From: Marsupella aquatica
Taxonomy: Eukaryota > Plantae > Marchantiophyta
Direction of reading: 5' to 3'
Assembly: GCA_973895155.1 (NCBI GenBank)
Contig: OZ316892.1
Location: 20,957,619 to 21,021,618, forward strand
Length of the DNA stretch: 64,000 bases
The position numbers and the translations under genes are program-made. This document shows, piece by piece, positions 12,588 to 40,221 of the stretch (position 1 is the first letter of the stretch; every line of letters begins with the position of its first letter). The notes beneath the pieces were generated by a model. That model did no database searches. It saw only the letters and a program-made list of their open reading frames with translations, and had not been told where the DNA came from.

Positions 12588-15500
12588 TCTGATTCACTTG
12601 ACTCGGACCTGTCGGTGGATTCTGCCTCCATGTCTAAAAATTTGTTCTCGGCCATATCATCAACATATCGACTACGAATAAATTTTCTATCAGACCCTCT
12701 CCTTAATCTCAAACCTTTATGCTCCCAATGGAGGGTCCGCACACTATCAGTTCGTCTAGCAATATTCTCAGCATAGGAAGGTAGTACAAATGGTTTCTCG
12801 GGAGTTTTAATATATCGCCTAGCTACTTTCCTTCTGAGTTGGAAACGCCGGCAAAGATTCCAGTCTGACCTGAGGACGAGAAGTTTAGGGTTTTATGTCA
12901 ACGCCAAGAATATTTTAAAAAATGAAAAGAAAAATGATAAATCGAAGAGAGAATAAGGTAATCTACTAAAAAACCGGGTTTACTTAAGAGCTTACTCTGA
13001 AGCTTCTTACTCAAAAGAGTCTCCGCTGTCACTCCCTCCATGAGATCCTGGATCTTCTTCGGTAAGAGACACTTTGGGAATGTTAGGATCCTCCTCTTCT
13101 TCCCCCTCTTCTGTCTCATCCTCATCTTCAGAATCAAAATTTAAGACAGACTTCAGTTTGTCTATCTTTCGTTTTGAAATTGAAGACTTTGGAGGGGCTT
13201 TGGGCTCAGACTCTTTTGGAGTAAGAAGATCCAGAAATACCTTAGAAGCAGTTTCAACAAACTCCTTCCTATTCTCGAGTCCAATTACAAATCGACCACA
13301 ATTATCACCTGCAACAAATGTACTCCCCGAACCTACAGTCCAATCCAGAACAATATCTTCTGGACACGTAATTAGTTCCAACACAGACTGCATGAATCCT
13401 GGATGTAGTCTAGCATTCCCGGCAAATTTAAGCTCTGGAGTTGTATCAACCTTCGCGAAGGGAAGTCCAATCAGATTTGTAATGGAAGGATCCTCTGTTT
13501 TTGAAAGGGGTTTGAACTTAGGATCTTTTGGGACTTTCACCTTGGATGATATCCACGAAAATACATCCAAACGTAAAGTGAATACCTGAAAAGGGAACAA
13601 AATAGAGGAAGGACCCTCAGATTACAATAGCGTCGGGCGCTAGCAAATAATCCAAAAAATCACGTTGAATAGTTTACCTGAAATAAGGTCAAATAAAAAA
13701 AGAAAGTAATACATAATATGAATAGCGCTAGAAAAAGGATCAACAAAATTACCTGTAAATCAGACTTCGCTTTGTACATTGGGAACCCCATGACGACATT
13801 ATGTGTACATAGACACTGAAATTTCTTGGACTCTTGACAAGCGGAGATGACCTGCAAAATTTGATCATACTCCCCCGTATGGAGTATCGCAATAATTCCG
13901 TCATCCAACAAAAAAGGATCCATTGCCCGGAAAAAGGATCGGGGTAGGGTACAGTCGGGGATGTTCCATTTAGGGACCTTTCTGTCAAACAAAGTCGGTT
14001 TTAGCCCAGTTGGCAAGTAAATAAAACCAGCGTCAACACCAAAAGGTCTTTGCTTCCCACCCCTCACCACTCCTTTCAGCCGGCATCCAGATTTGATCAG
14101 GTCTTTCCCCCACTTTTCGGCATCATTTACCCATTCCGGCTTGTCCTCCTTATTAAACACACTATCCACAAGTTCACTGACACTTGTCTCAACGAAACAA
14201 TGACGAGACGACTTGGCTTTAAAATCCCCAACATCACGTTGGAGCCCAGTGACAGCCTGAGAATCCCGTTCTGATTGTCCAGCATCTCGAGTCCTTCTGC
14301 TTTTCTTTTTTGTACTGGTCGCATCGACTGGGACAATCGATTTCCCAGAATTAATAGGTGTAAGTGGATCTGGCAAAGCGCCAGTATTTGCTTCTAACGC
14401 TTTTGGGGTAACCTTCGTATCATCTGTGCCATCTGCATCTGACTTCTTTTGACCTATGAACATATTGCAAAGAATGTGGGATTAGGGCCTTCAAGCAAAC
14501 ACTGATGAAGATTGAAACACAAGAATGGCAGCGCCGGGCGCTAGCAAACATTTGAAAAAAAGATTGAAAACTTACGTTTCTTTCCGGATCGCGTGGAGGC
14601 ACTTGGCACTGCAGTGTCTATTTTAACTTTCCCTCGTGGCTTGCGGCTCCTATCTACATGGACAACTACTGTCTCACAGATTGTCTGTAACTCCGTAGAA
14701 GATTTATCAACGTCGCTAAGGAGACCTTGCTTCATCTCAAAAACAATGTTGGGAAGGATCTGCGACTTTGCAAGTTTCAGAAACCAATCCTTCTCCACTT
14801 CATCAAAGGGTGAATCCTATTTGTCTGTGTCAAGGTACCATGGGCAGTGAATTCTTTCCCACTCGGACATTTCCCTTGGGGGTAGTTTACCCTTGGCAGG
14901 ATACATCGAGTATAAGTCACAAACAAGATCTCCCTCCTTTACAGTAATCCACTTGTGAAATGCGGCTGGATACGCCCAAAGAGCATCCGGGGAATGAATT
15001 TCCATCCAAATGTAGAAACGATACAAATACCTCTTGGCCCTCTTCTGATTTTTCTCGGTATATACCTCTTTATCAAGGTATCTTGATGGCCACATGGTGT
15101 TGAAGAACTTTGCCTTCACAAGATCTCCATACCTTCGGAATTCACTTGAAATTACTTCAATCAGATTTTCTACCGAGTCACACCCTGACTAATCAACCGG
15201 TAGCGTTTCAATCGCTGCAAAAATTGCCGAGTGTAGCATCCCAATTGCAATTCCCTCGACGGTATTCCATGTTTGCCATGTGTGGCACCACTGCTTCACT
15301 GGATCATCGTTCACACTTGAAGGGTGGAAGAATTGTTTTCTCAACTCTGGAGTACAGCGAGCAACGAGCAATGTACACCTCAATTTTTGATCAAGCGCCA
15401 AAACTGCAGTAAAGAGTCTGGCACCGTCCATAACTGTGCAAACAACCAAATCTGGTTTTTCTCTCGCTTGTTTTTCTCTGTCAAAACATACATCTCTGCA

Positions 15501-16345
15501 CAGGTACCTAGAAAATCTTCAAACTCAGGACTAAGAAGAGGAGTGATTTTGGACGTTTTCGTGGACCAATCTTTAGTAGACTCTTTCAACATGAGCGATT
15601 GCCACTTTGTGATGTCATCAGCCGACCAAGGATTGCCTTGACTTGCTGCCAGTGCCATGTCCATCTTGAACTGGTTAGTGTAAGCTTTAATTTTGTTTTC
15701 GCATAAAATATAGACTAGAGCTTCTAGAGGCATTTTTCTTGTGTACCAAGAATGTTTTCGAGTCTTCTGTTTGATATACTCAAACTTTGCATAATTGGCG
15801 CTGTCAATGATAGACTTGTAGTGCTCTAGATCGTGAGAAAGAATCCTCCGGATTCTGTCTGCGTCAAGGATCCACGACGGTTCAACAACGGCCTGCCCTA
15901 ACCTGCAATAGGCCAAGTTTTCAATTATTAGCGTCGGGCGCTAGCTTAACTTAAACACTCAATTAGCCTATAAACATTGTATTATTCTATAAACACTCCA
16001 TAAACACTGTATTTATGTAATAACCAAGTATTGCGGAAATTGTTAATTACAAGCTAGGGCAAAAAACGTACTGGTTCACAGTGTGCATAGCCGCCTCAAT
16101 CTGAATTTGCGAAGCTTTGTCACCCTTGAAAATTGTGCAGAGAACTCTGGGATGATACTTGACGTTGTCAGGATTTTCCTTTGTGACCATCGTCCACGAG
16201 TAAAGTCGATGATTCCCGTCGAACACTGAGAACATTTTGTCTTTCAAGATCATAAAGGCAGGATCTGCCTCGCACTCCAGCTCAAACTTCTCGTTCTCAG
16301 CAACCCAAATTGCATCCCAACTCTCCCTGATCTCTTCAGTGCAGA
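12588..16345 (-). pseudogene. ParB/Srx-like + N4/N6 DNA-methyltransferase-like fusion gene, 3' part (exons ~16345-16072, 15902-14576, 14453-13753, 13585-~13010, ~12870-12588)
   Basis: MFSVFDGNHRLYSW (ParB DGxHR box). C-terminal VDAGFIYLPTG...FFRAMDPFLLDDGIIAILH...LELITCPEDIVLDWTVGSGSTFVAGDNCGRFVIGLE follows beta-class amino-MTase motif order (IV...X-I-II). One frameshift (~15440) and in-frame TAG stops at ~15189 and ~14817. Confidence 0.75.
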
Positions 16346-16369
16346 CACTAGTAGAAAACAATGTATTTT

Positions 16370-17075
16370 ATGACCAAAACAATGACTATTAATCAGGTCT
16401 TTTTAACAAAACAATGACGCAATTGTTCTCGTCTTTCCAGACACGTCACAACGGACATTTTGGTCACGGTCCTTTTGGACAAATGACGCTAAAAACATGT
16501 GGTCATTTCATACTATCCTAAATGACCGTTTTTATGATATGGTCATAAATGTTGAACGGTCCAAAATGACGACACAAATCACCATCGACGGTCAATTGCC
16601 GTTGACCGTCGATGGTCTCCGTACCCAATCACACAACGACACGTGGCAATAAAAAAACTAATAACATTGGTCATTTTGGACAGTCCAAAATGACGTACAT
16701 TATATAACAAATCAAATAGTGACACGTGGTTCAAAGAGGATTCACCATTTGGCAATATATTTGGGTCATTCTGGACGTGTCCAAAATGACTACAGTATAA
16801 ACAAGTCATATTGAGACACGTGGTTCAATTGGGAGAAGACACGTAAAGATACACATTAGTCATTAATGACATGTCTTGAATGACATAAAGTGAGTCATAG
16901 TGGACTTGTTTATAATGACCATGAGAAAGGTCATTGTATATGTCATTCTTTGAATCATTTAGTCTATGTCTTTAATGACCAGAGTTGAGTCATATTGGTC
17001 ACAAAGATAGTTGTGAATAATGACCATTACATCAGTCATTCTAGCTAGTCATTTAGTCATTCAAGCCAATCATTC
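16370..17075. repeat. CACTA left subterminal repeat region (dense AATGAC/GTCATT motifs)
   Basis: Dozens of atgac/gtcat motifs in both orientations next to the TIR, as is typical of TnpA-binding subterminal regions. Confidence 0.8.
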
Positions 17076-17428
17076 AGACGAAGTATTCAATGATTTGGAG
17101 AAATTCAAATTTAAGTGATCATGATAGATAAAACTTGATGTCAATCAAAAATCATATATTACAAAGCCATTCAATAGAGTTGCTAAATGAAAACTTAAAG
17201 AAACATTCGATATATATCACAAATCCAATTGATATTCATACAAGATACCTTCATAAGTCTCACGGTAAATATTGAACTCAATGCAAATTTATGAAACAAA
17301 ATTACATTGACATCAATAATATTAGATTGTCAATTGTTACAACCTGACATACCAATCACTCTGCATGTTTATAGAAAAACAGAGTTGTCATTCTATCATG
17401 TCTATTGTTTCTTGATAGAGTGCTATTT

Positions 17429-20400
17429 CTATTGCTTCTTAAGCAATCTAGAGTTCCATAGGGCATTCATCCCTTTCACATCAGATAATTTAGACTGGTT
17501 CTCCCCTGAATTGGCAAATGGCAATGCCACATCTACAAACACTTCAATCACACGCACTCGCAAGAAAGGGCTTTCAAAATCTGCACAATGAAACTTATCT
17601 TCTCCTGGCAGCCCTGTCACCTCACCTTCTGCCACTATCATGGAATTGTCCACAACGCTCTTCATCTTCACCAAATCTCCTCTTGCAAACTGTGAACAAC
17701 ACATTTTGTTAAAAATGCAATAAACAGAAATTGAAAGATAGAAGAACACTCAAATCAAACACACATTTACCTTTGCAACGGGGTTAGGAGACTGCATTGG
17801 TTTCTTCTGTGCAGGTGATGCATTTGCTGAGGATCCTTTCTTCCTTTTCTTCTTTCCCTTTCTAGTTGATGGAGTGTCATCCTGTTCACTTGGAATGGGA
17901 GTTTCTTTTGGCAACTCAGATGATTCTGGGGTTACATCTGGTGTCAACTGAGTCGACTTATCCTCTGGCAACTGAAAGACATCTGAAATGGCTTCTTTGG
18001 GCAACTTAGATGGCAAAAGGTTCACTTCCAATTCAGTTTGCTTTAGAGTACTGTTAGCTGTGTCAGTTGGTCTTCCCTGCGACACAGGAGGCTCCCCTAA
18101 AGATGCTGTCATAAAACACACACAAAAGAAATGCATAAACAAACATGTATACACCAGCAACATATAATCACACTAAAAACATGCAAGAACATTATAAACA
18201 TGCAATGACATATACACATCACAATAATTACATTGAATGGACAGTGTATACATGATAGAGAATTTTACCTTCATTATCGCCTGAAAAAGTAAGAGATCGC
18301 TTTCTACTACCTTGTTTGGTAGTTGTAGTCAACTTACTGTGACTAGGCACAACTGTTGGAACTTGTGCATTACTGGGGTGATGTGCCATCCACGTAGTCA
18401 TCATGTTTGTCAACTCCCTCACAGTGCCTTTCAACTCAGCGACATCCAATTTCACAGCCCCAATGGCAGTGATCTCTTCTTTTGAATGTGGGGTCTGTAA
18501 ATGAACCACAAACCAACACAACAGTCTCACTGTCAAACTTACAAACGACACAACACTGGCTCTGTCAAATGGAGAATGATGTACAAATCAAATTGGTATG
18601 ACAATACTCACAGCTGATCCATGTCTGTTTCCTTGCCCCAGTAAGCTAGCACTTTTACCCTCCCCACTTGCCAATGATGGGCTCACCTTTGCTCCCACAA
18701 AACTACCAGTCTGACCTTCTGCACTTGCCAATGATGGGCTCATTGTCACCTTTGGCAATGAACCCTGACTACCATGGTTTTCTTTCAGGTCAGATATACC
18801 TGGGCTTGATCCTCTCTTCTGCTTCTGTTCAAACACACAATGAATGAGAAATCACAGAGTTTGTTTTCATCAAGATTCACAAACAAGACAGAATTGATAG
18901 TGAAAATGATAGACAATTTACCATTCTCTTTGCTGCTGCAGCATGCCCTCCCCTTCCAAAGTGAGAGGTATCTTGCACTCGTGCTCTTTTATCAGTCATC
19001 TGTTTACTCAAAGATATCAATGCTGGACTGGTAAAATGAGATACCAAAGCTGCCCATTTCTTTGGATCAACACCAGATGGCCCAAGTTTGGTTGGATCCT
19101 CATTGCAAACTTTCTTCCAATAAACATGCATTTTATGGCGCTCTCTCTTCAATATGCCACGACAATGACTCTGGAATTTGGTGTTAATAAATTCCCCACC
19201 CACATACTCCCACTCAGCTGCCATGTTATTCCACACTGTGGTTGTATGAACTTGTGGATGATCAGTCCATTTTGGCTTTGATACATCAAAGACTCTGAGT
19301 ACGTTGCCACGAAGTTCCTCCAGCCAGTATTGTTTGTTGCCATCAGAATCATCAATATCATTGTCATAAATCTGCATTTCATAGACAATGTCAGATCATA
19401 ACTCTGGAATTTATGCAGAGTCCAGGTTTTATACACACAACAACAGAGAGGATCAGATTTGTCTAAATCTACAAACAAGTACAATACTCACTTTAATGTG
19501 TTTGGGCACCTCTCCGCAATCCCTTCGTTGTTTGGCAGTATTATCAAACTGCTTCTTAGCATGCCTTCGTTCCCTGCGCATCTCAGAGGCCCCTCCTGCA
19601 ATGCACACACATGCATTCAATCAAAAAATATGTACATGATTGAAAAGTTGAGCAAATGTACTTGCATATGCAACACGAGCAGATTGTGTATTACCTGAAG
19701 ATCCTCTGGAATGTAGTACATCAGATTGACCTGATCTGCCTTCAGATGCTGATGGAACCACTAAACAAACACACAACACCAAAGCACTTCAATTAATTTC
19801 ATTTCCAAGTAGAATATCAACTTCCAAACACACCTGAAAAGTAGAACAGTACAATCCACTCACTTTCATATAAGAGTCCAGTGTCTGGGTCTTTCCAACA
19901 TCTCACTAGCCCACCTCCACCAGGCCCAGTCTTCTTAGGACCACGATTTTGTTTCTGTACCTACATCATGGACAACGTAAGCATATCAACATATAATTTG
20001 AAAAAGGGACAAGGATCCCTTCCTATTAGGATGATGAAGTTCAAGCATTACCTGTTGTGCACTCTCTGGTTCTGACCCTCCAATGTCAGAATCCTCAGTG
20101 TCATACTCAGAAGGAGAACCATAGCCATCATCACCAAACTCTGCCATGTTCACCTTGGTAACTTCTGATAGTCTAGAGCTCCTCCTCTTTGGCAATGTTT
20201 CAGTTGAAGTACCTTTCACCAAAGCAGGCTTTCCTCTCTCTCGTTGTACATGTGTGGTTGGGCCTCTAAGGAACAAAGCAATCATCAACATACACCAATG
20301 CAGATCAAACATACATGCAAAATGAATCTACAACACCATAACACTAGTACTTATGTACAGGATCCATACTAGTATGAGACCAATCTGGAATATGAAAACA

Positions 20401-20604
20401 GAACATGAACCTGACAACTCCATCTACTGAATCAAATTTGCAATAGACATATCAACACACACATCAGCTTGCAGTCTGGCCCCAGTCCTAGATCACGCAT
20501 AATTCTGACATTATGCTCTATGTTCCGATTTCGGGCCTCCTCATAAGGATTCACAGAATGTGACAACCCTTGCAATCTTCCTTTCACAGGCTGCATTCAC
20601 CAAC
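17429..20604 (-). CDS. CACTA TnpA/Ptta-like accessory protein, many exons (boundaries approximate)
   Basis: N-terminal YEEARNRNIEHNVRIMRDLGL motif (~20550). Central KKWAALVSHFTS...SKQMTDKRARVQDTSHFGRGG resembles the Ptta/En/Spm domain. C-terminal VAEGEV...LRVRVIEV..DVALPF..ALW resembles the Tnp1/En/Spm-like domain. Numerous GT-AG junctions. Confidence 0.75.
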
Positions 20605-20694
20605 TGCACAAATGGATAAACCATTAGTCTGATTTCATAAATAGTCCATACATGTAGTCCATCTATGGACTTCACACACCTAGCTAAAACCTAT

Positions 20695-23600
20695 TCACTG
20701 CTTAGGCCTGCCCTTTCTTGCAGATCCCTCTGCATCTCTGCCTCGTTTGGGACCAGTACTTGGTCCTGGATTTTCTCTGGACCTACAGGCCTTAGCCAAT
20801 TCGATGTGTAATTTGACATTGTTTTCCATTGTAGCATGGAAATCAACGTCTGTGTAATCACCTAACACCCTTGTGGACCTGGATTCTTTGTGGAGGATTG
20901 TTCTCCATGCTATCCCCTTCTCATTGGGGTGGAAGAAAACCTGCTCCACTTGCTTTGGGAAAACGTAATCCATTTTCTTGGACACACCCAGTTCTCTATG
21001 GAAATTCACCTGCCAAAGACCAGACTTGGTATACCTCATACTGGCAGAGGATTTAGGAGTCCATGATGGATCTGCCCATTTCCCTTTGAAAAGAATCACC
21101 TCTTTCCTCAAGCTGCCATAATTCAGTACCAAGATATCTGTCAAGGCCCCTACATACTGTACAGATTCTTCTATGGTTGCACCAGACCTGTCCACTCGCT
21201 TCTCAGTGAATGTAGAAGCCATCCCAGAATCAAAAGTGCTGAAAGCACCAGAATCACAATCACTCAAACACCCCAAGGATGGAATAGTCCTCCAATGGTG
21301 CCCATAGGCTCTACATGCCCTATACAGTCGTGCCTTCAAACTAGGTGGTGTGGAGTATGCAGATAGTAATGACCGCTCAGACTCTTTCTCAAAATTATGG
21401 GTATTGACTAATGTTTGAAACCATTCCCTGAAAGGTGGCAATTCTTGGCAGTCTACGGGAAATTCCACTGGTTTTCTTCGATTGGCAGGCTTCCTCATCC
21501 ACTCCTTCCGGAAATCCACTCTTCGTTTGGTAACAGTCTCATTGGTAGCATCATATATCCTGCATGGCAACAACAACACTGAAGACATTAGTGCACGATC
21601 CACCATGAATATACAAACACAATGGGGAAACATAATTATGATCCATATGCCTAAGGATAGGAGAGTTTCTAGGGTTTATGTACCTATACCATGGAGCCAC
21701 TGTCTCTTCATTCTCTAATATATAATGATGCATGGCCATCATTTCAGACCAATCCAAAGTTATCGCCTTTGCAGCCCCTTCCAAAACAATGCCTGCAACG
21801 CCAGCATCCTCCTCCAACTCCCAGGTTCGTTTTCCCTCTCCCTTTGCATCAATCATGTATTCAGAAAGAAATCCCAAAGACTCATCTAATACATAGCCTT
21901 CAGCCATAGAAGCCTCTGGACGTGCCTTGTTTCGTACATAACCCTTCAATACCTTCAGGTTCCTCTCTATTGGGTACATCCATCTGCCTGTAACTGGGCC
22001 ACACAAGTCTAATTCCTCCACTAGGTGAATCATTAAATGGGTCATGACATCAAAGAAGCTTGGTGGAAAATGGATTTCCAAAATGCAGAGAGTGAATGCA
22101 ACATCCATCATCAAATTCTCATACATTGAAGGGTCCCACACCTTCGTACAGATCTGGCGATAGATATTGCTCACCCCAGCTATGGCCAAGCGAACCCCTT
22201 CATCAAGTAATCCCATTGTTGCCAGAGGGAGAATCTGTTGCATGAGTTGGTGGAAATCATGTGATTTCAACCCAGAGAGTTTCTTGGATTTTGTAACACA
22301 CTTTGCCAAAGAACTTGAAAAACCAGTGGGCCCTTTCAAGGTCAATAAAACCTCCAAGAACCTTGTTCTTTCCTTCTTGCTCAGGCAATATGGGGCTGGG
22401 GGCATCAACAATTTGTCATCCTTACGCTTGGGAGCTGGATTGGGTACAAGCCATAGGTGTTGGCGCACCTGTAAGAGCTTCATGTCTTCTCTCACAGAAG
22501 GAGTGTCCTTGGTCCCAATGATAGTGTGCACAATGTTGTGTGCAAGATTCTTCTCACAGTGCATGGGATCTAGACAATGGTTAATGAGTAGTTTCTGCAG
22601 TGGACACACAATTCAGAAATTAGGGCATTGAATACAACTTTTGGCATCACTGGGCAGTAGTTTGTGCAGTGGACACAATTCAGAAATTAGTGCATTGAAT
22701 ACAACAATTACAAAATCTGGGCTACAGGAAGTATATGAAGAGAATATATTTCAAAGTCATATGAAGAGATTGCAGAAATTCATTGTAGTAGTATGGAGTC
22801 TTACATTCCAATAGGGCAACTTGTACAGACCAGTAGCCCTCTTCACTCCATGCACCTTTATGGGGCATTTCTCATCCTCAACCTTGGTTCCTCCCTTCTT
22901 CAAATATTCTGTTGTCTCGTCTCCCCACTTCTTTCTATCAGAGCTTGTCATTCTACACGGTGCAGGTCGACTCTCAATTGCACCATCAAAGTATTGTGCA
23001 CTATCTGGTCTACGAAAAAGATGCCTTGTTGCTAACCATCGACGGTGGCCACTGTACTCTAATTTCTGCAAGTGCTTAGAACCACGTGCCACACATTCTG
23101 GCCCACAGATGACACATCCTTTGTATCCAGAGTGTTGTTGTCCAGATATTAAACCATATGCAGGGTAATCATTGATTGTCCACAATAGCACAGCCCTAAG
23201 GTTGAAGTGTTGAGACAATCCTGGGCGTGGCAATTTGTCAAAGCAGGGCACTCCTTTCTTCCACAACAGCTCCAACTCCTCATAGAATGGGCCCAATATT
23301 ATGTCTAGCTGTTCCTCTGTTACTGAATCAGGTCCTGGAATCAGCATAGCTAGCATGACAAAGAACTTCTTGGTGGTAAGCCAAGGAGGTAAATTGTAAT
23401 TCAACAACAGTATTGGCCAGGTAGACCAAGCTGTGGAATTATTCCCAAAGGGATTCACCCCATCAAGTGCCAACCCAAATCGCACATTCCTTGGTTCAGC
23501 TGCAAATTCCCGATCAATATTTGTATCCACATGCTTCCAAGCCTTTGAATCTGCTGCGTGCCGAACCATGTTGTCTGTGCTTCTATTCTCATGATGCCAA

Positions 23601-24688: not shown

Positions 24689-25285
24689 GCTAGCTTGATT
24701 GAAATTGTATTCAAACTATGATTTTCAAACTGAATCAGAGTGACATGCATACAAAATTGGGCCTACCGTCACAGTTGTACAACCGATGCCAACCACAGTC
24801 CAATTGCTCAAACCCACAGAGCCCAGTTTCTCAAATCCACTGTAGTAGGGCACCTTCTCCTTGCATACAAATAGAGCATCACATACAGTGTCATCAGAAT
24901 GATACTATGAACGTAAATCTCTGTGCCTTCATCATTTCCAGTATTTGTTTGCCTATTAGGAATGTGAGCAGACAGGTCTGGAATAAGTAACGTTTGTGAC
25001 ACCAGTGACAAATTTACAAGTGAAGTTTAGACATCAATATGGAGGAAAGTCACACTCAAAGTACATGCTTGAAAATCAGAATCCTACCCTGGAAAAGATA
25101 ATAAAGTTGATTTCTCAAAATTAATTGCCTCAATCCGCAATGCACTGTCGTAGAGTGTGTATACATGAGGAGTTCATCAAACTGCATATAAATAGTCCAC
25201 ATGTTTTAGCACTCTGAAAATTGTTTAAGTCCACGTGAAACCATCAAAAAGCTCTATCTCAAGTTTGTGTTCGATCCAGCCTCAA

Positions 25286-25945: not shown

Positions 25946-28283
25946 GGTCCTGCACACTCAGACCCTACATCAGATTGTGAAACAAGAAGGAATAACAGGG
26001 TGCAGTATGACACAAAAGAATGAGGGTGCAGCATAAAATATGACATGTAACCACAAGGGTGCAACATAAACCAATGCTTTATAGATGGCAAAGCATTTAG
26101 GACTGAGCAGCGCAAATAACCTTGGCCTAGATGATTGGAAGCAATCACAAATATTGCAACCTGTATGCCTTTGCTTGCTGTACAGCAGTGCTCACTCACC
26201 CTGCCTTTTTAAAATCTGTAAGGGCAACACAGAAAAAATAGCAATTGAGTTTCAGCAAAGCATTCATTTGGCTCTCAAGTTTTAAAATGGACAGAGCAAA
26301 CACAACAATGTGCACAACAAAGCACAGAGAGCAACAAAACTCCAGCAAACTGGGACTCAGGCAAGAGATACGAATTTTAGCAGCGAAATCAAATCAAGAT
26401 TCGGACCTGTGAGTTCAACATGCAGTGCTCACTCACGCTGCCCTTTTTTAAATCTGTAAAAATCAAGTTTTATTGTGTGCCTTCTACATCTTAAGCTGCT
26501 GCACACATCTGTTACAGAACCATAAGTTGCTTTACTCTCAACAAGCTGCTGGTCCACCCACTTTTTCAAAAGCTGCACCGTACTCTATCTTCGTGCACAA
26601 ATGACTATACCGGGCTGCTGTCAGAGACCCTTACGAAGGATTTAAAATTGACCAAGCTGATTTTAGTTTAGTTTTGTCCAGTTTGCAGACCAAAGGAAAT
26701 CATGTGGCTGTATTCATGGAGTTGTATTCATTGCTGTGTATGGATGTTGTGTGAACATCAGACAGTTAGCTGTAAATTACCATAGTTGAAGAGCAAGGCT
26801 TGTACAAAAGCCACTAAGGAATTCTCTGAGGTGGCACAGCAGTTGGCAAACCACACACGAAACTCTGAAACTTTTTGGCGACAAAATTCTACAGAGTCGC
26901 TGCTGGAATCAAGTGAGGATTCACCATACATGCTTGCACTTCTCTTCAGTAAAAAAAAGAGAAAAGAAAAGGGCTATGATACAGAGGGATGTCAAAAGAA
27001 GAGTAAGGAAACCAATTCATTGAGGAACATAGACAGACTAAGGAAAACATCATACAATGGAAAACTAAGGACTACATTGTAATAATAAGAGATCAAGCTC
27101 ACCTTGCACCACAAACATTGTCAGACGACAACAAGACAACAAACTGAATTGAACATAGCAGACAAATCCAACAAGTAGCAATCAGAAATCAACAGCAGAC
27201 AGACAAAGGACAACTTGGTCAGAACTCGGGCACTTGATTCAGTTGTGGTAAATAGCTGTTCAGGTTCTGGACAAGCAAGAGCAATACGTGAGCAGACTCC
27301 AGAAAAATCATCTCTTGAGATTGAGGAGAAAGGCATTTCCCAGCCAGCTTACTTATGTCTTGAAAAATGTATCGGACATCGTGGACGCTGGGCCTCAGCT
27401 GCTGGCCGCAAGGGAAGATTTTGCCAAAACAAACAATAAAGCTCGAAGATAGTTAAATTTCTTAGGTCTTTCTAAATGGGGACTGAATTAGCAATTAGAA
27501 CCAGTAAACCCTGATCTTGGGCAGGCAGAGAGAGAAGAGTCCGCGCCTAATACTTATGTCTACCCGAATTTTACTGGGACATATGAGCATTGGGATGCCA
27601 TTGCAAAGCAGAATTTTGTAGCAGTGGAAGGAATCAACATAGATAGCAGTGGAAGGTCGCAGTGGAGCTAGCATGGTACAGGGAAGGAAATGCAGGCATT
27701 GTGCGAGAAAGTGCAATGGCTAGTTCTATGGGATTTCCTTCTCCAATCCATGACAGTGCCGACGACACGCACAACTGCTACAATCAGTGCGCGTCCAGGA
27801 TGCTCCATCGCATCACGTCAGGGAACTCAACATTCTAGACATTCGAAAACTGCATTCACATTTCTCTGCAAAGGGAACTCAACATTGTAGACATTCAAAA
27901 ACTGGTGCAAAACTCAGGCACTTAGAGAGAGAGGGACAGAGAGAGAGCGAGAAAGAGAGAGCAAATAGTCTCTTAGCAATCGGAGCTTCTCTGTCATTGC
28001 CATAAGCATACTAGCAGACACTAAGCAACAGAACAAGAAGGCAACATTGGATTCATGGACTGACAGCACATTGGTAGCACATTGGCAAAAGCAAAGCAAA
28101 AATGCAGAATGAACAAATGGCCAGAAGGGGAAGAAGCGCAAAATTGCACAACTGACCTTCTCGCACCTCAGCCCAAACTCGCTCCCACAGATATAAGTTC
28201 TCGCAGCTCCTTGATGGAACCTCCTGTAGGTTCTCGCCGATTGCAACTCCTCACCCACAGCTTCTTGCCGATTGTAGCTTGCT

Positions 28284-28462
28284 GCTGATTGCAACTCGTC
28301 GCTGATTTGCAGCTCGTCCTCCGCTCCTCACCCGCAGCTTATCGCCGATTGTAGGTCGTCCTCCGCTCCTCGCCCGCAGCTTATCGCCGATTGCAGCTCA
28401 TCCTCCGCTCCTCACCCGCAGCTTATCGCCGATTGCAGCTCATCCTCCGCTCCTCACCCGCA
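28284..28462. repeat. 42-bp tandem repeat (~4 copies)
   Basis: gattgcagctc(g/a)tcctccgctcctcacccgcagcttatcgcc repeated head to tail. Confidence 0.85.
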
Positions 28463-29029
28463 ACAATGACAAATGTAAAGAAGCTATTGCCTTGACCCTA
28501 CAATCAGGCACTCCAAAGCCCGAATGTCCTCCAAAGCGCAGGGTCCTCCAAAGAAGCTCCCAAGTCCTACCGAGGTGCTCCGCCGACCGCGCGCAACAAG
28601 CTCAAAAACAATTGTAGCCTGAATGGCTTCGGGTCGGAGCTCCTCCTCTAAACCTTGCAAATGGTCACTAAAACAATGCCACGTCCAACGCTTCACTCAA
28701 ACAATGCCTCACCCAATGCTTGCCCGAACAATGCCTCGCCCAACGCTTCGAAGGGTGTCGAAGCTTGGTGGAATGGAGCACAACGCTGCGCAACCCTAAG
28801 CCCTTGCAATGTGCACACAAAGGCATGCCAAGAAATGAGCACATCGAGCGTTGCCCTCTCGATGTTTTTTCAGGAAAAAGGGCTCCTGTTGGTACGCAAG
28901 AACACTTAGCGGGAAAAACCTAATGCTAGACCCCTAAAGCCCGTAAAGGTAAGGTATTCTGTTGGATGGGGATGGTGGATATTGTGGGTCATTAATTAGG
29001 GTTATATTCTGACAATATCTCTCACATGT

Positions 29030-29220
29030 CTGGACCCCCCATAAGGCCCTAGGGAAGTTGAGACTAGGTTAATAACAATGTAAACCCCCCCCCCCATAAG
29101 GCCCTAGGGAAATACCAACTATAGAGGTTAATAACAAGGTCCGGACGCCCCCATAAGGCCCTAAGTAGGGAAGGCAAGGTTAATAACTCATAATGTCACG
29201 ACCCCCCCCATAAGGTCATG
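29030..29220. repeat. ~57-bp degenerate tandem repeat (4 copies) near the presumed CACTA promoter
   Basis: cccccataaggccctagg...ggttaataac repeated. Confidence 0.7.
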
Positions 29221-29779
29221 GCTGTTTGTGTAGGTGCCAACAAGAATGTTAAGGACCAATGTTATATATAAAAAATGATGCTAGCGATATAAAAGGTCCG
29301 ATATATGCCCGCGATATAAACCCATAACCCGCATGCATGAACACCATTTTGGACTACCTTATTGTCTCACCATATGATAGTGATACTCATCCAAATATTA
29401 GCATTTAATAGCTCTCCACTCCTGACTCAATTGAGAGAAACCCTCATTCATGACTCAAGCACAATTATAGGGTCCCTTACATGCTACATGACCACTACAT
29501 ATGAGGCTATGTTGTGTAAGAGTTTTTGAGAGCATTACACCAAAGCATTAATAAGTGAGCCTTCCCATGACTATATGACCTCCAATATGCCAACATTAAT
29601 GGCTTCCAATATGACAGCGTGAGTGACCCCACGTTTAGTCCTCAGATTGAAGCACCATTTAATTCACAAATGACCCAATGAACTCCCTTGTACCTCCAAA
29701 GAGAACCCCCCAATAGCCTTTGTAAAGACCACATTTCCAGTCATTTGGTACTTCTGACCTCTAGTATGACAACCAAGAT

Positions 29780-32700
29780 TACCCTAATTTGAGGTGTTTC
29801 CATTAATGACACACCATGAGGGACCTCTCTAATGACCACATATGCAGTCAATTGCTCCAAATGACCTCTAACTGACTACCAAAATGACCCTTATTGTAGT
29901 CATTGACATTAATGACACACATTATGTGAAAATGACCCAATGAAGAGTATACTACCTCTCGGAGTGCCCCTTTACAATTCCTTTGGAATTTAATAGAATA
30001 TATCCAAAATCCAAATATTGGCACAAACATGACATAGTTATATAGAAGGACATAGTCTTCCACTAGTATTGCACTATATACCTCTTGGAGAGACAAAAAC
30101 AATTTTTGTATGCATGCCTTAGGATGGTATGCATGCATGGTGACACTTTTGGCAAATCACTCCAAAGTTGTATGACTTGGGAGTGATTTCCCCAAGGTTG
30201 CATCATCCCTTAAGTAATTGCAAAAACATGGCTCCAAAGTGCTCATGGTGCAACTAGTGGTTGGAGAATAGTACGGTGGGTATAGTACCCCGCACCTTGT
30301 GGAGAGGTTGCCACCTTCATGTAGAGCCCCATGGCACACTAGGGCCACCTTAAGCTCCTAGACCCAAAAGGGTCATTTCTGATGGTACGTAATGACACCA
30401 TGAGGGACCTCTATAATGACCCCATATGGAGTCATTTGGCACAAATGACTTCCAAAAGGACTGCCAAAATGACCCTCACTGCAGTCTTTGGCATTAATGA
30501 CACACTATTCCTCCAAAATGACCCAATGAAGATTACAACACCTACTCACAATGCCTTAAGTCTATTCATATGCAAAATGGAGTATTCCCCATCCAAACAC
30601 CGGCACAAACATGACACAATTACATCACAAGATGACAACCTTCCATTGGTGTTGCGCTACTTCTTGGAGAGACAAAAAATGGCTCCATTTGCGCTTGGAT
30701 ACGGTGGTATGCATCCATGGTGACACTTTTGGCAAATCACTCCAAAGTTGTATGACTTGGGAGTGATTTCCCCAAGGTGCATCATGCCTTAAGTAAATGC
30801 AAAAACATGTGTCCAAAGTGTTCATGGCACAACTAGTGGTTGGACGATGATGAGTATAGTGTCCCGCACCTAGTGGAGGGGGTTCTCACCTCTATGTGGG
30901 GCCCCATGGCACTCTAGGGCCCACCTCCAGCCCCTAGCCCCAAACTGGTCATTTGTGCTTCTGCTTAATGATTGCACAAGGGACCCCTCAAATGACCACA
31001 AATCCAGTCATTTGACTTATGTGACAGCCCATATGACAGATTTAATGACCCTACTTGTAGTCATTGGTATTTATGACACCAATTTTTTCAGAAATGACTC
31101 AATGAAGATTACACTACCTTCTTGAGTGCCCCATCACTATTCATTTGCAAAATAGAATATTCCCCATCCAAACACCGGCACAAACATGACACAATTACAT
31201 GGAACGACAACAGCCTTGCACTACTTCTTGCAGAGACCAAAAAAATGGCTTCATTTCCTTTAGATAGGATGGTATGCATCAATGGTGACACTTTTGGCAA
31301 ATCACTCCAAAGTCGTACGACTTGGGAGTGATTTCCCCAAGATTATATCATCCCTTAAGTAAACACAAAAACATGGCTCCAAACTGCTAATGGTGCAACT
31401 AGTGGTTGGAGAATAGTAATTATAGTATTTGACACCTAGTGGAGGGGTTGCGAGCTCTATGTGGTGCCACATGGCACTCTAGGGCCCACCTCCAGCCCTT
31501 AGCTCCAAATTGGTCATTCATGCTTGTCTTCAATGACTGCACTAGAGACCCCTCAAATGACAACAAGTCCAGTCATTTGAATTATATGACATCCCATATG
31601 ACCAATTCAATGACCCTACTTGTGGTCATTGACACTTATGACATGACTCTGTTAAAAAATGACCCAAAGAAGGTCCTAGCACCGCCAGAGAGAGCCCGCT
31701 CTACATTCCTTGCAAAAATGGAATAATCGTATACCTTTAAACATCAGACACATCATAGAGGGAAGCACCACTACCACACCCATTCCATTGGTGTTGCGCT
31801 ACCTCTTGGAGAGACAAAAAAGGGCTTCATTTGCGTTTGGAATAGTGGTATGCATCCATGGTGACACTTTTGGCAAATCACTCCAAAGTCATACGACTTG
31901 GGAGTGATTTCCCCAAAGGTGCATCATGCCTTAAGTAAACGCAAAAACATGTGTCCAAGGTGTTTATGTCGCAACTAGTGGTTGGACAATGATGAGTATA
32001 GTGTCCCGCACGCAATGGAGGGGTTATCACCTCTATGTGGGGTCACATGGCACTCTAGGGCCCACCTCCAGCCCCTAGCCCCAAACTGGTCATTTGTGCT
32101 TTTCCTTAATGACTGCATAAGGGACCCCTCAAATGACCACAAATCCAGTCATTAGACTGATATGACTTTCCATATGACAGTTTTAATGACCCTGCTTTTA
32201 GTCATTGATATTTATGACGGTCCATTGCTCACATATGACCCAATAAAGGCCCTGGTACCTCCAAAGAGAGCCCGCTTTAGATTCCTTGCAAGGTTGGAAT
32301 ATTCCTCTTCCCTAAACCCGCACCCACACCATACAGGGAAGCACGACTCCCCTGCCCATTCCATTGGTGCAGCACCACCTCTTGGAGAACCCAAAAACAA
32401 CTTTTATTTGCCTTTGTATGTGATGGTGTGCATGCATGGCAACACTTTTGGCAAATCACTCCAAAGTCGTACGACTTGGGAGTGATTTCCCCAAAGGTGC
32501 ATCATGCCTTAAGGAAACACAAAAACTTGTGTCCAAGGTGTTTATGTCGCAACTAGTGGTTGGACAATGATGAGTATAGTGTCCCGCACGCAATGGAGGG
32601 GTTCTCACCTCTATGTGGGGCCCATGGCACTCTAGGGCCCACCTCAAGCCCCTAGCCCCAAAATGGTCATTTGTGCTTTTCCTTAATGACTACATAAGGG

Positions 32701-34390
32701 ACCCCTCAAATGACCACAAATCCAGTCATTAGACTGATATGACTCTCCATATGACAATTTTAATGACCCTACTTTTAGTCATTGGCATTTATGACGGGCC
32801 ATTGCTCACATATGACCCAATAAAGGCCCTAGTACCTCCAAAGAGAGCCAGCTTTAGATTCCTTGCAAGGTTGGAATATTCCTCTTCCCTAAATCTGCAC
32901 CCACACCATACCCTAAAAGCATGACTCCCCTGCCCATTCCATTTGGGCAGCACTACCTCTTGGAGAACCCAAAAACAACTTTTATTTGCCTTTGTATGTG
33001 ATGGTGTGCATGCATGGCAACACTTTTGGAAAATCACTCCAAAGTCGTACGACTTGGGAGTGATTTCCCCAAAGGTGCATCATGCCTTAAGGAAACACAA
33101 AAACATGTGTCCAAAGTGTTTATGTCGCAACTAGTGGTTGGACAATGATGAGTATAGTGTCCCGCACCTCGTGGAGGGGTTCTCACCTCTATGTGGGGCC
33201 CCATGGCACTCTAGGGCGCACCTCCAGCCCCTAGCCCCAAACTGGTCATTTGTGCTTTTCCTTAATGACTGCATGAGGGACCCCTCAAATGACAATAATT
33301 CAGGTCATTCCACTTATATGACATCCAATGTGACCATTTTAATGACCTTTCTTGTAGTAATTGGCATTTATGACGGGCCATTGCTCACATATGACCCAAT
33401 AAAGGCCCTAGTACCTCCAAAGAGAGCCAGCTTTAGATTCCTTGCAAGGTTGGAATATTCCCAAACCCTAATCCCACAGCCACACCATGCTAAGAAGCAC
33501 GACTCCCCTGCCCATTCCATTCGTGCAGCACTACCTCTTGGAGAACCAAAAAACAGGTTTTATTTGCCTTTGGATGTGATGGTATACATCCATGGTTGCA
33601 CTTTTGGCAAATCACTCCAAAGTCGTACGACTTGGGAGTGATTTCCCCAAAGGTGCATCATGCCTTAAGGAAACACAAAAACATGTGCCCAAAGTGTTTA
33701 TGTCGCAACTAGTGGTTGGACAATGATGAGTATAGTGTCCCGCACCTAGTGGAGGGGTTCTCACCTCTATGTGGGGCCCATGGCACTCTAGGGCCCACCT
33801 CAAGCCCCTAGCCCCAAAATGGTCATTTGTGCTTTTCCTTAATGACTACATAAGGGACCCCTCAAATGACCACAAATCCAGTCATTAGACTGATATGACT
33901 CTCCATATGACAATTTTAATGACCCTACTTTTAGTCATTGGCATTTATGACGGGCCATTGCTCACATATGACCCAATAAAGGCCCTAGTACCTCCAAAGA
34001 GAGCTAGCTTTAGATTCCTTGCAAGGTTGGAATATTCCTCTTCCCTAAACCTGCACCCACACCATACTGAGAATGCACCCACACCATACTGAGAAGCATT
34101 ACTCCCCTGCCCATTCCATTGGGGCAGCACTACCTCTTGGAGAACCAAAAAACAACTTTTATTTGCCTTTGGATGTGATGGTATGCATGCATTTATTTGC
34201 AAATTAAAATATTCCCCGTCCAAACACCGGCACAAACATGACACAATTACAACAAAGCATGACAACCTTCCATTGGTATTGCCCTACTTCTTGGAGAGAC
34301 AAAAAGGTTTCATTTGCCCCATGGATACGATAGTATGCGCGCATCCATATATGATGACACTTCTGGAAAATCACTCCAAAGGTGTATGAC
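29780..34390. repeat. ~578-bp tandem array (~8 units) inside the CACTA element
   Basis: Anchor cacttttggcaaatcactccaaagt recurs near 30144, 30724, 31289, 31865, 32443, 33021, 33599 and, degenerate, 34358. Confidence 0.92.
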
Positions 34391-34469
34391 TCTACAATTA
34401 TGATAGGTGTCTGGAATGACTATTGAGTATTTTAATCTTCATATCTCTTGGGTTCTTTAATGACTCTAT

Positions 34470-35345
34470 AAGTAGTCATTTATGTAATAAGTCCATAATG
34501 ACTGTATGTTATTGTAAACATTGATATATCCTGATTTTTAGATTGCCCTATATTTAGTCATTTATGCGACAAGTCCATAATGACAGTATGTTGTTGAAAA
34601 CACCGATATATCCTAATTTCAAGATTGACTGTGGAGTTAGTCATTTATGAGAAAAGTCCATAATGACGGTATGTTCTTGTAAACACTGATATGTCCTAAT
34701 TTCAAGATTGACCCTAGAGTTAGTCATTTATGGCAGAAGTCCATAATGACAATATGTTGTGTAAACACTGATATATTCTCATTTTCAGATTGACCCTAAA
34801 TTTTGTCATTTATGAGAGAAGTCCATAATGACGGTATGTTCTTGTAAACACTAATATGTCCTAATTTCAAGATTGACCCTAGAGTTAGTCATTTATGGCA
34901 GAAGTCCATAATGACAATATGTTGTTGTAAACACTGATATATTCTCATTTTCAGATTGACCCTAAATTTTGTCATTTAACACCGTTGGTTAAAATGACGA
35001 TAATACATTTTTTGTCATTTATCACCGTTGTCCAAAATGATGCAAATAGATTTTTGGTCATTTCAGTCATTGTCCAGAGTGACTATAATGTTGCTAAACA
35101 CTGATTTATCATTGTTGTTATTAATTGTGTCATTTAAGACATGTGTCTAAATTGACCATTTAGGGAAATTGGGTCATTTTGGTCGCATCAGTCATTATAG
35201 ACATTATACAAAATGACAAAAAAATTAACATTTTGTCATTTCAGTCTATTGGTCATTGTGGACAGTCATTCCCCCGTCATTCTTTTTGTGTCATTAAAAC
35301 TTTTGGTCATTTATTCATCTCTGTCATTGGGTGATTGGTCATAAA
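34470..35345. repeat. CACTA right subterminal region including ~89-bp tandem repeats
   Basis: tagtcatttatg..aagtccataatgac..gtaaacactgatat unit repeated ~6 times, then dense gtcat motifs up to the TIR. Confidence 0.85.
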
Positions 35346-35366
35346 GGGCCCTGTTTTCTTCTAGTG

Positions 35367-35856
35367 AGATTTGCTCCACACCATCCGAATCGGTCGGCTG
35401 TACAAAAAACTGCATTCCTATCCTGGGATTGTATCCACTACTTCGGAATGAGTCTTTCAATTTCTCAATTGACGCACTCTCCTTCTGTAACGTCCAAACA
35501 ACCTCCATGTGGACCAGGCGACAAAGCGGAATCCGTGGAGGTTCCTTCTCATTCCCCCAGAAATCTTTCCCAAACGACATGATGTGTTTGGAGATGACTT
35601 CATCCATTCCAAGTCCTACCTCGTTGCCCTCTCCCAAAGCGTAATCGGTCATGCCATCAATCTCCATTCTGCCCCTTCTTGGCTTTTGGCTCGGGAGTGT
35701 TGTGTTCGACGAAGGAATCGCTCCGCTCGATCTTGTAACATGATGCGAATAGAATGCCCCACAGAATGAAGATTGTGTACTCTCACAATGACCCTGATCT
35801 CCCTCCGGAACCATGGTATACCCTCTTGGAGAGCTTGGAGCGCTTGAAGGTTGCAT
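35367..35856 (-). pseudogene. ParB-MTase-like fusion gene, 5' part (start of ParB/Srx-like domain)
   Basis: RIPLCRLVHMEVVWTLQ..SIEKLKDSFRSSGY..FFVQ. After removing the CACTA and one TSD copy it reads GVEQI-CTEEIRESWD in frame with the 16.3-kb segment. Confidence 0.75.
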
Positions 35857-36754: not shown

Positions 36755-39178
36755 ATGTCTAATTCAGTTGTGCTTCTGCATTCTGGAACTGGAGAGATTA
36801 TACGCATTCCTTTAGGTTCTTCCGATACGTACAAACAGGTTAGTGAGAACTATCTTTGTGGAAGATTTGACATTGGCATCAATGACATTCTTTCCATCAA
36901 ACCTGTTGATGCTTCTGGAGATGAGGCTGGTGACGCATTGTTTGATATCGACGATGGAGTCAGATTTTGGCAACTGAACGCTGGGAAGAGATACTATATC
37001 AATCTTCGAGATAATTCTGTTACGAATGAAATTACTCCAGTTCCAGTCATTCACCTTTCCGATAGTGATGAGGAGGATGTTGCCGTTCATTCTCAAAAAT
37101 TGCCCAATCCGGGAACTTCGGTCAAGATGGAAGGTCAGTTTCCTTCCGAGACACACGTTGCGGGGGGTGTGCGCAGACACACATTGCGGGGGGTGTTGCG
37201 GGAGGTATTGTCTACCGTCGAAGTGCGATGGATGCTATTCTCAAATCAACTGGCCACAGTGAACTGTCGCGATTCATCCGAACATGTGATTTCAGGCATG
37301 AGCAGGTGAATTGCCTCCCAAGAAAATACAATGGAAACATTGTATTTGAATTGCCTCCCGCAGAAGGTCTTCTTTCAAAAGGTTCAAGACTCCGTGACAT
37401 GGATCGGCCGAAAGACTGCTACTTCTGGACTCAAATATTTCCAACCTCTACGAATGTACAACCGAAAAAGTTCTGGGAATTTGGTAAAGTGACGTGTACA
37501 GGAGCACTAGAATGTCAAAATCAGAAGTGTGATTATCTTTTGCGGAAGAAACAAAGAAATTGTAAAGCTTGGGATGGGACACCCAAACTTGCGGGGCCAC
37601 ATACCATAGGAAAGATGATTGACGAGGGTGGTGTAGTTTGTCACTATTGCCAACAATTACCCTTTTGTACTGAAGCATGTCCTGCAATGCTTTTTTATAT
37701 GTACCCTCAACTACTTCTAGATGAGGATACTTGTAAGCATATGTCCCGTCTTGCTGTGCATGTCGGAACTCATGCTCATCCCAGTCGAAAAGTTTTTTCT
37801 CGTGGTGCTGAAAAGATTGCTCACAACTTCATAAAGAAACAACATGAAGCTACGCCGTGTGCCACACCATCGGGTCTGAAGAACGCTATAACTGGATCTT
37901 TAAGGAAGGCTCTTTGTGTGTCCAACAATGACATTGGTGAATTGGAGGAAAGAGAAATTTGGGAGTCATTAATGGTAGTTTCGACCCCTCAAAAGTTCGC
38001 ATCTCTTTTTTGAAGCTTTCGGCAAGACCAAAAAGGCAAAGGTGAGTTGGAGTTTCTTGTTGAAATGCAGAAATGCATAATCTTTCCCTTTCTACAACGT
38101 TACATGCTCCCAGGTCAAGGCTGTAAAGAGGATAGGCCATATATTTTCAAAATGACTGTAAAAGGGCACGGATCTGGAGTTGATTTGTTGCGCCAAATGC
38201 AGCCTGGAGGTCCATTGGAAGGGGCATGGGTCAGTTTTGATGTGATGAGGAGGATGACAAAAGATTGGATAACTTTTAGCGCACATGTTTATGATCACAA
38301 TTATCGTGCTCTTTGCACAATTTTCACATGTGAGTTGAAAGCAAAAGATTCAGAGTCTTTAGAGAAAGCCTAGAAATTGATGATTGAGGTTTGCCATGAA
38401 AATGGGTTGGATAATGTTGTGATCCATGGATTCATGGCTGACAATGCCCAAGCTGGATGGAATGTTGTTCGGAATGTGTTTTTCGGAGGACATCCTAACC
38501 CAGAAAAGGAGCGATCGGATGCATTTCACTTCTATCAATCGTTTCATCGTCACTCAATTGAAGGTGTATTGGAAGAAAAATGAGATGAGCATCGGAAGAT
38601 GTGGGACTCTTTAAGGAACGCGTCCACATTTCTTGGAGCGTACAGAATTTCAAGGGATATCGATGTATGGTGGAGATCTAGGAATTGTGTTCCAGGGAAG
38701 CTTCGAATGCTCCAAGGTTGGTTGGCGTGGTGGGTGGTCCGATGGCGTCAATGGGGAAATTTCATTCGTTTGGTGAGTTTCAACATCCAGTAACCACTCG
38801 AACTCATGCTAGCGCTTGGCGCTACCATTATTTTCAGTTAGTGTGGTCTCGTAGGTTTTGTTCATCATTATCTGGTTTTTGATACTAGCGCCCGGCGCTA
38901 GTATTAATGGACCACTTGTTTCTTAAATTTACAAAAATTTAGTTTGAATGTTGCTAGCGCCAGGTGTTGTCATTGATTTTATGTACATGTGGCTAATGCA
39001 TATTTCCTAAACTCTGCTCCTATGGTGGATGCAGAACAAAAGCGTGGAGGAAAGCGCTATGATTCCTAACTGTACTACTTCAGAGGCGGCGCATTCCATA
39101 ATGAAGGCTTGGCAAACTAAGAAAAAGGCTGGCCTATTCGAAGCATGTGAGATGGATATAAGTTTGCCTTATATATAA
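36755..39178 (+). pseudogene. Divergent Mutator-like DDE transposase with Cys/His-rich (GCM/WRKY-like) N-terminal domain; decayed and 3'-truncated
   Basis: CTGALECQNQKC...CHYC..C...C...HVGTHAHP, then WVSFDVMRR (D1), GFMADNAQAGWN (D2), DAFHF (CxxH position) and, after intron 38773-39034, PNCTTSEAAHS (E). One frameshift (~37180) and three in-frame stops (38011, 38371, 38581). Confidence 0.75.
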
Positions 39179-40210: not shown

Positions 40211-40221
40211 TTGATGTTGAT

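Follow-up and report, generated by a model that had tools for sequence, protein, structure and literature searches.

A dead, multi-copy DNA transposon of the liverwort Marsupella aquatica with a ParB-like and methyltransferase-like accessory gene and a dispersed palindrome

A 64-kb stretch of the genome of the liverwort Marsupella aquatica (GenBank assembly GCA_973895155.1, contig OZ316892.1, positions 20,957,619 to 21,021,618 of the forward strand; hereafter the window) has a content typical of land plants, i.e. germin-like cupin genes, a protein kinase gene, a CACTA transposon and the remains of a Mutator-like element (MULE) and of a long interspersed nuclear element (LINE). It also contains one copy, now dead, of a multi-copy plant DNA transposon, which is referred to below as the element. 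Next to a likely DDE transposase gene, the element carries a spliced accessory gene that appears to combine a ParB/Srx-like domain with a methyltransferase-like domain, the latter most likely a pseudo-enzyme, and its non-coding DNA harbors 16 copies of one palindrome. What we infer from this combination, with slightly less than even confidence, is that the accessory protein may bind the dispersed palindrome and would thus shield the element from host cytosine methylation.

The accessory gene and its two domains

The accessory gene is split by an insert of 19,021 bases (16346–35366, minus strand), which is a CACTA/EnSpm transposon with inverted CACTA..TAGTG ends (16346–16377 and 35335–35366), a 3-bp duplication (AGA at 16343–16345 and 35367–35369) and a Tnp2 transposase (PF02992, E-value 4.6e-66), along with matches to DUF4218, DUF4216 and PHD fingers. 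Removal of this insert together with one AGA restores an open frame across the joint GVEQI/CTEEIRES, as had been proposed in an earlier, sequence-only reading of the window and as is confirmed by the junctions and inverted ends. The resulting minus-strand model has five exons, four GT-AG introns (16071–15903, 14575–14454, 13752–13586 and 13010–12870) and 1,219 residues, and it is interrupted by two TAG stops and, near 15475, by one frameshift; a real intron in place of the frameshift was rejected, given that GT-AG pairs there lie only 12–14 bases apart. The long spliced gene, its stops and frameshift and the motifs FSVFDGNHR, YLPT and VLDWTVGSGST had all been described correctly. Exon 1 falls into a first part (35367–35856, with the first ATG chosen as start), which encodes the first half of the ParB/Srx-like domain, and a second part (16072–16342) with the DGNHR motif at 16206–16220. 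A helical middle is encoded by exon 2 (14576–15902), where the frameshift and the stops at 15189–15191 and 14817–14819 are located. Exon 3 (13753–14453) provides the first half of the methyltransferase-like domain, including YLPT at 14008–14019, and exon 4 (13011–13585) the predicted S-adenosylmethionine (SAM)-binding motifs (VLDWTVGSGST at 13319–13351; IGLE) and an acidic tail. The intron between exons 3 and 4 is supported by three proteins of the liverwort Calypogeia fissa that cross the join in register and by five unspliced predictions that diverge just past it. Less certain, because of a TAA directly after exon 4, are the last intron, which preserves the frame, and a probable exon 5 (12575–12869) encoding a basic and then acidic tail without family match; contigs of the most distant public sequencing run, X7, lie on 12736–13006 in this region.

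Judged by its sequence matches, the C-terminal domain is a homologue of the beta-class amino-methyltransferases, as the sequence-only reading had assumed. Exon 4 matches PF01555 above the cut-off (E-value 4.2e-8, positions 170–220), PHROG with 11 hits that include six phage methyltransferase families (best 8.8e-8), and solved structures, namely DpnA (5hek, E-value 1.5e-6) as well as MboIIA, CcrM and PvuII. When compared by hhalign with a phage beta-class reference profile built from 80 viral loci, the domain aligned colinearly, at 96% for the single sequence and at 83% over 210 columns for the family profile. The alignment puts YLPT on the DLPY/DPPY motif of the phage enzymes and implies a permuted order with the motif IV region before motif I. 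Using HMMER against 1.84 billion representatives, 39 relatives of exon 3 (as clusters) were found at E ≤ 0.001 and 26–65% identity, all of which retain an open, conserved domain. Word-index protein searches with exon 3, the transposase and the ParB piece had returned nothing, which reflects their insensitivity in light of the 39 relatives found by the full scan; matches of exon 3 in the Atlas were methyltransferase clusters at scores under 0.9 and serve as a lead only. Among the 30 of 39 relatives that were looked up, five were named by organism, all of them divergent paralogues from C. fissa on five different contigs, with the accessions CAM6096077.1, CAM6123651.1, CAM6082147.1, CAM6096687.1 and CAM6128600.1. 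The N-terminal 700 residues had no match among 45 proteins, as is to be expected when predictions are partial or the size of an exon, so that the fusion is not confirmed by relatives.

The relatives are informative as to catalysis. A canonical motif IV of the type [DNSH]PP[YFW] occurs in none of the 37 relatives that cover this position; their consensus is x-L-P-T (L in 30, P in 35 and T in 26), with a variable first residue (Y 11, A 11, F 7, S 4, C 3, R 1). In the phage control set, by comparison, 80 of 85 sequences have a D/S-P/L/I-P-Y/F motif, either canonical or of DLPY type. Hence, loss of motif IV seems to be old and shared rather than a result of the decay of this copy. The SAM-binding DWxxGxG and I/VGLE motifs are retained in all three Calypogeia proteins that extend that far. 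The domain is therefore most likely a pseudo-enzyme and no writer of N4-methylcytosine (4mC) or N6-methyladenine (6mA), as far as can be judged from its motifs. This bears out the earlier caveat that motif IV might be non-catalytic. Of the suggestion that the element marks or protects its own DNA, marking by 4mC or 6mA becomes unlikely, and protection stays plausible.

For the N-terminal domain, a ParB/Srx fold on the DGQHR/DndB side is moderately supported by sequence comparison. The piece with the DGNHR motif matches phrog_5732 (E-value 1.4e-4), ParB-like phrog_1033 (0.025) and the DGQHR family TIGR03187 (0.015), and in the Atlas it falls in with clusters carrying ParB_N (11% of members) and DUF6551 at 0.92–0.94. 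Alignment by hhalign to 25 DGQHR proteins gave 53% and a score of 34.0, compared to 22.6 at most in 100 shuffles, with a match that crosses intron 1; this test is not fully independent since the family was chosen after it had already hit. The box II GxxR-type motif (here DGNHR) and the subsequent helix-strand-helix are present. The first part of exon 1 alone had no profile match, PF02195 did not match the split exon 1 pieces, and the ParB piece had no credible hit either by tblastn against phages and plasmids or by phmmer against the PDB. Likewise, no parA-like gene was seen in the element. A single-sequence model of the accessory protein (predicted local distance difference test, pLDDT, 51) resembled generic helical bundles only, and Foldseek with such models of the accessory protein and the transposase gave no match at E ≤ 0.001.

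The palindrome, the transposase and the state of the copy

The palindrome TAGCGCCnGGCGCTA is present in 16 copies at up to two mismatches, compared to 0.01 expected, and no shuffle of 100 contained more than one. Its wider consensus reads ATRS-core-SYAT, with symmetry over about 23 bases. Within the window, the copies are confined to the element and none is found inside the 19-kb CACTA insert; all 16 are located outside the modelled exons of both genes (p 5e-7). Seven lie downstream of the accessory gene (9186, 9378, 9658, 10677, 10801, 10979 and 12513), one each in its introns 3, 2 and 1 (13628, 14529 and 15929), none in intron 4, four in the spacer between the divergent genes (36226, 36299, 36444 and 36507) and two in the transposase intron (38810 and 38886). 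Scans elsewhere returned six metagenome loci and one viral locus; all of them contain just one site, show no protein likeness to the element and were taken as chance occurrences.

The presumed transposase gene is divergent from the accessory gene and starts at 36755, i.e. 899 bases from the accessory start, which agrees with the head-to-head arrangement with a Cys/His-rich gene that had been noted before. Exon 1 (36755–38772, plus strand) encodes a Cys/His zinc-finger region, followed by a predicted RNase H-like core with candidate catalytic D residues at 38239 and 38440; after a GT-AG intron (38773–39034), the truncated exon 2 (39035–39165, plus strand) contributes a candidate catalytic E (TTSEAAH, 39083). 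The gene is disabled by three stops in exon 1, by a frameshift near 37140–37170 and by the break-off at about 39165. Its N-terminal Cys/His pattern, recognized by eye and ending in HxGxHxH, had no Pfam or PDB match. A single-sequence model (mean pLDDT 37) shows the order strand-strand-strand-helix-strand of RNase H, and the best model matches were mostly RNase H-like (integrase, Cas9 and IscB nuclease cores, actin-like ATPases; Z up to 5.4). Searches with the transposase in Pfam (including PF10551), NCBIfam, the PDB, plasmids and the upstream MULE gave nothing, a metagenome scan yielded none of 57 candidates, and the IS256 profile missed it, as it also missed the true MULE upstream. We take the pattern of D, D and E and a DxxH variant of the CxxH-type motif to resemble Mutator transposases. 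Overall, a DDE transposase is likely, and Mutator membership is a lead from these motifs and not from a profile match.

The element extends from about 8650, an approximate left end, to 39165, where it is broken off, and measures about 10 kb once the two nested inserts are subtracted. The left boundary of 12588 in the sequence-only reading has to be moved, as the palindromes cover 9186–38900. The position near 8650 is suggested by an increase in contig depth at about 8670 and by contigs from two runs that break at 8679; on the right, an AT-rich repeat starts where the transposase gene ends. Mutator elements have target duplications of 8–11 bp, with long inverted ends or none; a search for terminal inverted repeats and a target duplication, which had been proposed as a check, found neither at the element with its broken right end. 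Seven public runs, from four organism codes and five studies, contain part of the gene, and four of them were used for contig comparison. Contig depth in run X1, which may come from the same source as the window, is 106–140 across the left arm, exons 1, 2 and 4, the spacer and the transposase, and 12–14 for flank contigs identical to the window. Contig depth is no copy number, and its even increase fits one multi-copy family that contains all parts. At 38371, where this copy has a stop, three runs show TGG in nearly the whole of their covering depth, and contigs of run X3 have 9 extra bases at the 15189 stop (15190–15192).

The observed/expected ratio of CpG at codon positions 3-1 is 0.68 for the accessory gene and 0.53 for the transposase, similar to host genes (0.67), as opposed to 0.12 for the CACTA insert and 0.13 for the upstream MULE. 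The element thus retains CpG about five times as well as these two neighbouring DNA transposons. The decay of this copy relative to others was counted from 56 of 80 listed differences (1,742 in total), after 24 in nested repeats or the right flank had been dropped. Among its C-to-T type differences, 33 of 40 are in CG or CHG, compared to 33% of cytosines (p 2.5e-10), which implies that the host methylates this copy once it is dead. Hence, CpGs were kept in the lineage as it spread, and this dead copy has later undergone decay of the kind seen in methylated DNA.

Other features of the window are listed here for completeness. A second nested insert of the element (11000–12415) is a high-copy non-coding repeat with short 10-bp inverted ends (GGACCCCCAT), a contig depth about 20-fold above that of the element and 32 loose ends at position 11000 in run X1. 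The palindrome-free gap at 9690–10670 may be a decayed third gene on either strand, as one minus frame contains 5 stops and the plus frame that mirrors it 4, vs. 9–23 in the other four; it had no Pfam match. Rfam gave no match over 8–41 kb. The CACTA insert, which is young according to its long frames without stops, contains an open frame (25289–25957, minus strand) with several NSD-type PHD fingers (PF23004, PF22908) that could be a chromatin-reading accessory gene, and at 29700–35000 a tandem array whose units of about 577 bp contain a palindrome (ATCACTCC..GGAGTGAT) and after which come 83-bp repeats. Adjoining the element on its left is the relic of a separate MULE transposase of ordinary type (5036–8270, plus strand; PF10551, SWIM, weak zinc knuckle), which is strongly depleted in CpG. 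To the right, AT-rich repeats resembling miniature inverted-repeat transposable elements with long inverted arms (39200–41800 and 51190–52330), one of which starts at the break-off of the transposase, occur along with an intronless protein kinase gene (43237–44292, plus strand; PF00069) that is possibly a retrocopy and presumably resembles MAK/MHK-type kinases. Two tandem germin-like cupin genes (46300–48997, minus strand) are 94% alike over 300 bases, and a frameshifted retrotransposon without long terminal repeats (60960–63560, minus strand; weak RVT_1 match) has host-gene-like CpG.

Possible roles of the accessory protein

Self-recognition in the service of anti-silencing appears to be the simplest way to connect the conserved dead methylase, the ParB-like switch, the symmetric non-coding sites and the retention of CpG. 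The accessory protein would then act as a dimer that reads a two-fold symmetric site. Its ParB-like domain could be a nucleotide-binding switch or clamp that spreads between sites 0.1–1.5 kb apart, and the dead methylase domain may grip or flip a base, or bind SAM without methyl transfer. Conceivably, the coated element would block or reverse 5-methylcytosine (5mC) and hold the shared divergent promoter open. A more specific version, about which we are doubtful, would be a self-recognition system of bacterial descent akin to parS/ParB, in which a nucleotide-gated clamp loads at the palindromes and spreads, and the dead methylase fold keeps 5mC off. If true, it would join VANC as a second anti-silencing system of independent construction, and no ParB-type DNA clamp at work in a plant nucleus would have preceded it.

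Several results weigh against such a role. The ParB fold is moderately supported, and the N-terminal domain had no match to profiles of 16 phage ParB-methyltransferase N-domains, 19 mixed ParB_N domains or 30 canonical ParB proteins; the original assignment is weakened to a match with the DGQHR/DndB branch. Neither profiles nor model comparison revealed a helix-turn-helix or another domain for reading DNA sequence in the accessory protein. In the methyltransferase-like half, the family profile A1 matched none of the solved structures at E ≤ 1, and exon 3 alone aligned with the phage methyltransferases at shuffle level (16.35 vs. a shuffled-column maximum of 16.14), so that the register of motif IV leans on the whole-domain alignment. 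The LINE at 61–63.5 kb retains CpG equally (0.64); hence, retention may also reflect recent arrival or another cause. In the four runs compared, no contig spans both genes, and their linkage in other copies is therefore read from equal depth. Last, the transposase has a zinc-finger region of its own, which could be the reader of the palindrome.

This last point leads to an alternative that we consider unlikely: the palindromes could be sites for the Cys/His zinc finger of the transposase in synapsis or self-activation, with the accessory protein as a partner or regulator and not a sequence reader. The length of the Cys/His region and the failure to find a helix-turn-helix in the accessory protein would favour the transposase as reader. 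Sites of transposases usually cluster at element ends, whereas the palindromes sit throughout introns and spacers. Precedents exist in form of the WRKY-GCM1 fingers, which are DNA-binding domains of MULE transposases (PMC1702500), and of the sequence-specific activation reported for the AtMu1 transposase (10.64898/2026.08.24.746577). Distinctly less probable is a nucleotide-gated repressor similar to DndB, which would bind at the palindromes to limit transcription and copy number of its own element; CpG retention and the sites deep in introns would then be left unexplained.

An active 4mC or 6mA methyltransferase with an unusual catalytic motif, which would mark e.g. CCNGG or GCGC inside the palindrome, is improbable as well. 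Its SAM-binding motifs are conserved, eukaryotic amino-methyltransferase clades with unusual strand-4 motifs exist (PMC4738411), and the Ectocarpus protein discussed below is predicted to make 4mC or 6mA (PMC12477816). Yet both key residues of motif IV are replaced and its first position varies freely, and Marchantia DN4MT1 keeps TSPPY (10.1101/2021.02.12.428880). Finally, the gene could be passive cargo or a chance neighbour, such as a host gene captured in the manner of a Pack-MULE, with no role for the element. The missing ends and target duplication and the lack of a contig joining both genes would be in line with this scenario, which nevertheless is very improbable in view of one palindrome that runs through intronic DNA of the two genes and is not seen outside the element in this window, the equally raised depth over all parts of the element, the five C. 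fissa paralogues and the 39 clusters with an open, conserved domain.

Relation to known systems

The closest counterpart by description is Sola1-1_Ec32 of the brown alga Ectocarpus, on which a gene for a 1,104-residue protein with ParB-like and N4C/N6A methyltransferase domains lies opposite the transposase (PMC12477816). Both are giant DNA transposons with such an accessory gene on the opposite strand and of similar length (1,104 vs. about 1,220 residues here); with its ParB-like domain, PF01555 match, orientation and multiple copies, the present gene fits this type in architecture. The algal element differs in belonging to Sola-1 and in a methyltransferase predicted to be active, as opposed to a Mutator-like element of a land plant with motif IV lost, and the covered part of its description mentions no dispersed palindrome, compared to 16 sites here. 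With reference to green and red algae, its authors have put forward a class of accessory proteins that bind and modify their own element (PMC12477816). In red algae, the Plavaka genes PAG2 and PAG3, also found on Mutator elements of Chondrus, encode PF01555 methylase and ParB-like domains that have been swapped among superfamilies, and internal inverted repeats are proposed as ParB sites for PAG3 (10.1101/2025.02.11.637652). There, ParB and methylase are described as separate genes with 2-oxoglutarate oxygenase and SET partners, and the repeats as tandem arrays beside PAG3; here, the domains are fused and single sites are dispersed in introns and spacers. The sequence-only reading thus overstated the rarity of this pairing. 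Its idea that a plant transposon has intronised a prokaryote-type gene holds insofar as the gene is spliced and multi-copy; as to its origin, descent from older eukaryotic transposons would be no less probable than direct capture from a prokaryote by this family.

As for a function in anti-silencing, the experimentally tested analogue is the VANC system of the Arabidopsis VANDAL elements, which are Mutator-like. In VANDAL21, a short motif in introns and between genes is bound by VANC21, which strips entire elements of their methylation (PMC5735166). An accessory gene on a transposon and an element-specific short motif gathered in non-coding DNA, i.e. introns, intergenic and terminal regions, are common to both systems. 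The VANC motifs, however, are 8–9 bases long, asymmetric and arranged in tandem repeats, and anti-silencing is shown for VANC and would be an inference here. The Pfam scan suggested no VANC homology, with no search aimed at it. According to the Bostrychia paper, no case other than VANDAL is known in which an element's own sequence is bound and modified (10.1101/2025.02.11.637652).

The order of motifs (IV, then X-I-II), the PF01555 match and the colinear alignment are shared with DpnA, MboIIA, PvuII, CcrM and the phage DLPY/DPPY enzymes. Fusions of ParB_N and N6_N4_Mtase domains are common in phages; a 391-residue fusion with a DPPY methyltransferase (L089:604–1779, minus strand) was used as reference, and its N-domain family had no match to the plant protein. 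Both these fusions and the beta-class enzymes differ from the plant protein, in which the catalytic motif is missing, about 500 residues are added between the two domains and the gene has introns. Bdelloid N4CMT is reportedly an active host enzyme with a bacterial-type beta-class methyltransferase fold and an SPPY-type motif. Marchantia DN4MT1 likewise shares the eukaryotic occurrence of this fold and differs as an active host enzyme with an SPPY-type motif; the term ParB does not occur in the covered text (10.1101/2021.02.12.428880). Iyer et al. described eukaryotic amino-methyltransferase clades, one of which has a fused helix-turn-helix of ParB type, and the covered parts contain no such land-plant transposon gene (PMC4738411). 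A phage ParB is known as an activator of a DNA-modifying enzyme (PMC13229309).

How DNA transposons survive host methylation has been answered experimentally for few elements. The present element offers a predicted protein, a predicted site of 15–23 bp, a measurable outcome in form of 5mC loss and liverwort relatives, by which an idea floated for algal elements becomes testable in plants. It would also change the published guess, since the methylase domain in this family looks like a dead reader and not a writer, and a sequence-specific anti-methylation protein could serve as an epigenome-editing tool. A literature search that extended to few subscription papers and supplements gave no land-plant report of a ParB-methylase transposon gene or of the palindrome. 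Taken together, ParB and methylase accessory genes in algal transposons are already published; new here are the occurrence in a land plant, the probable pseudo-enzyme and the candidate binding site.

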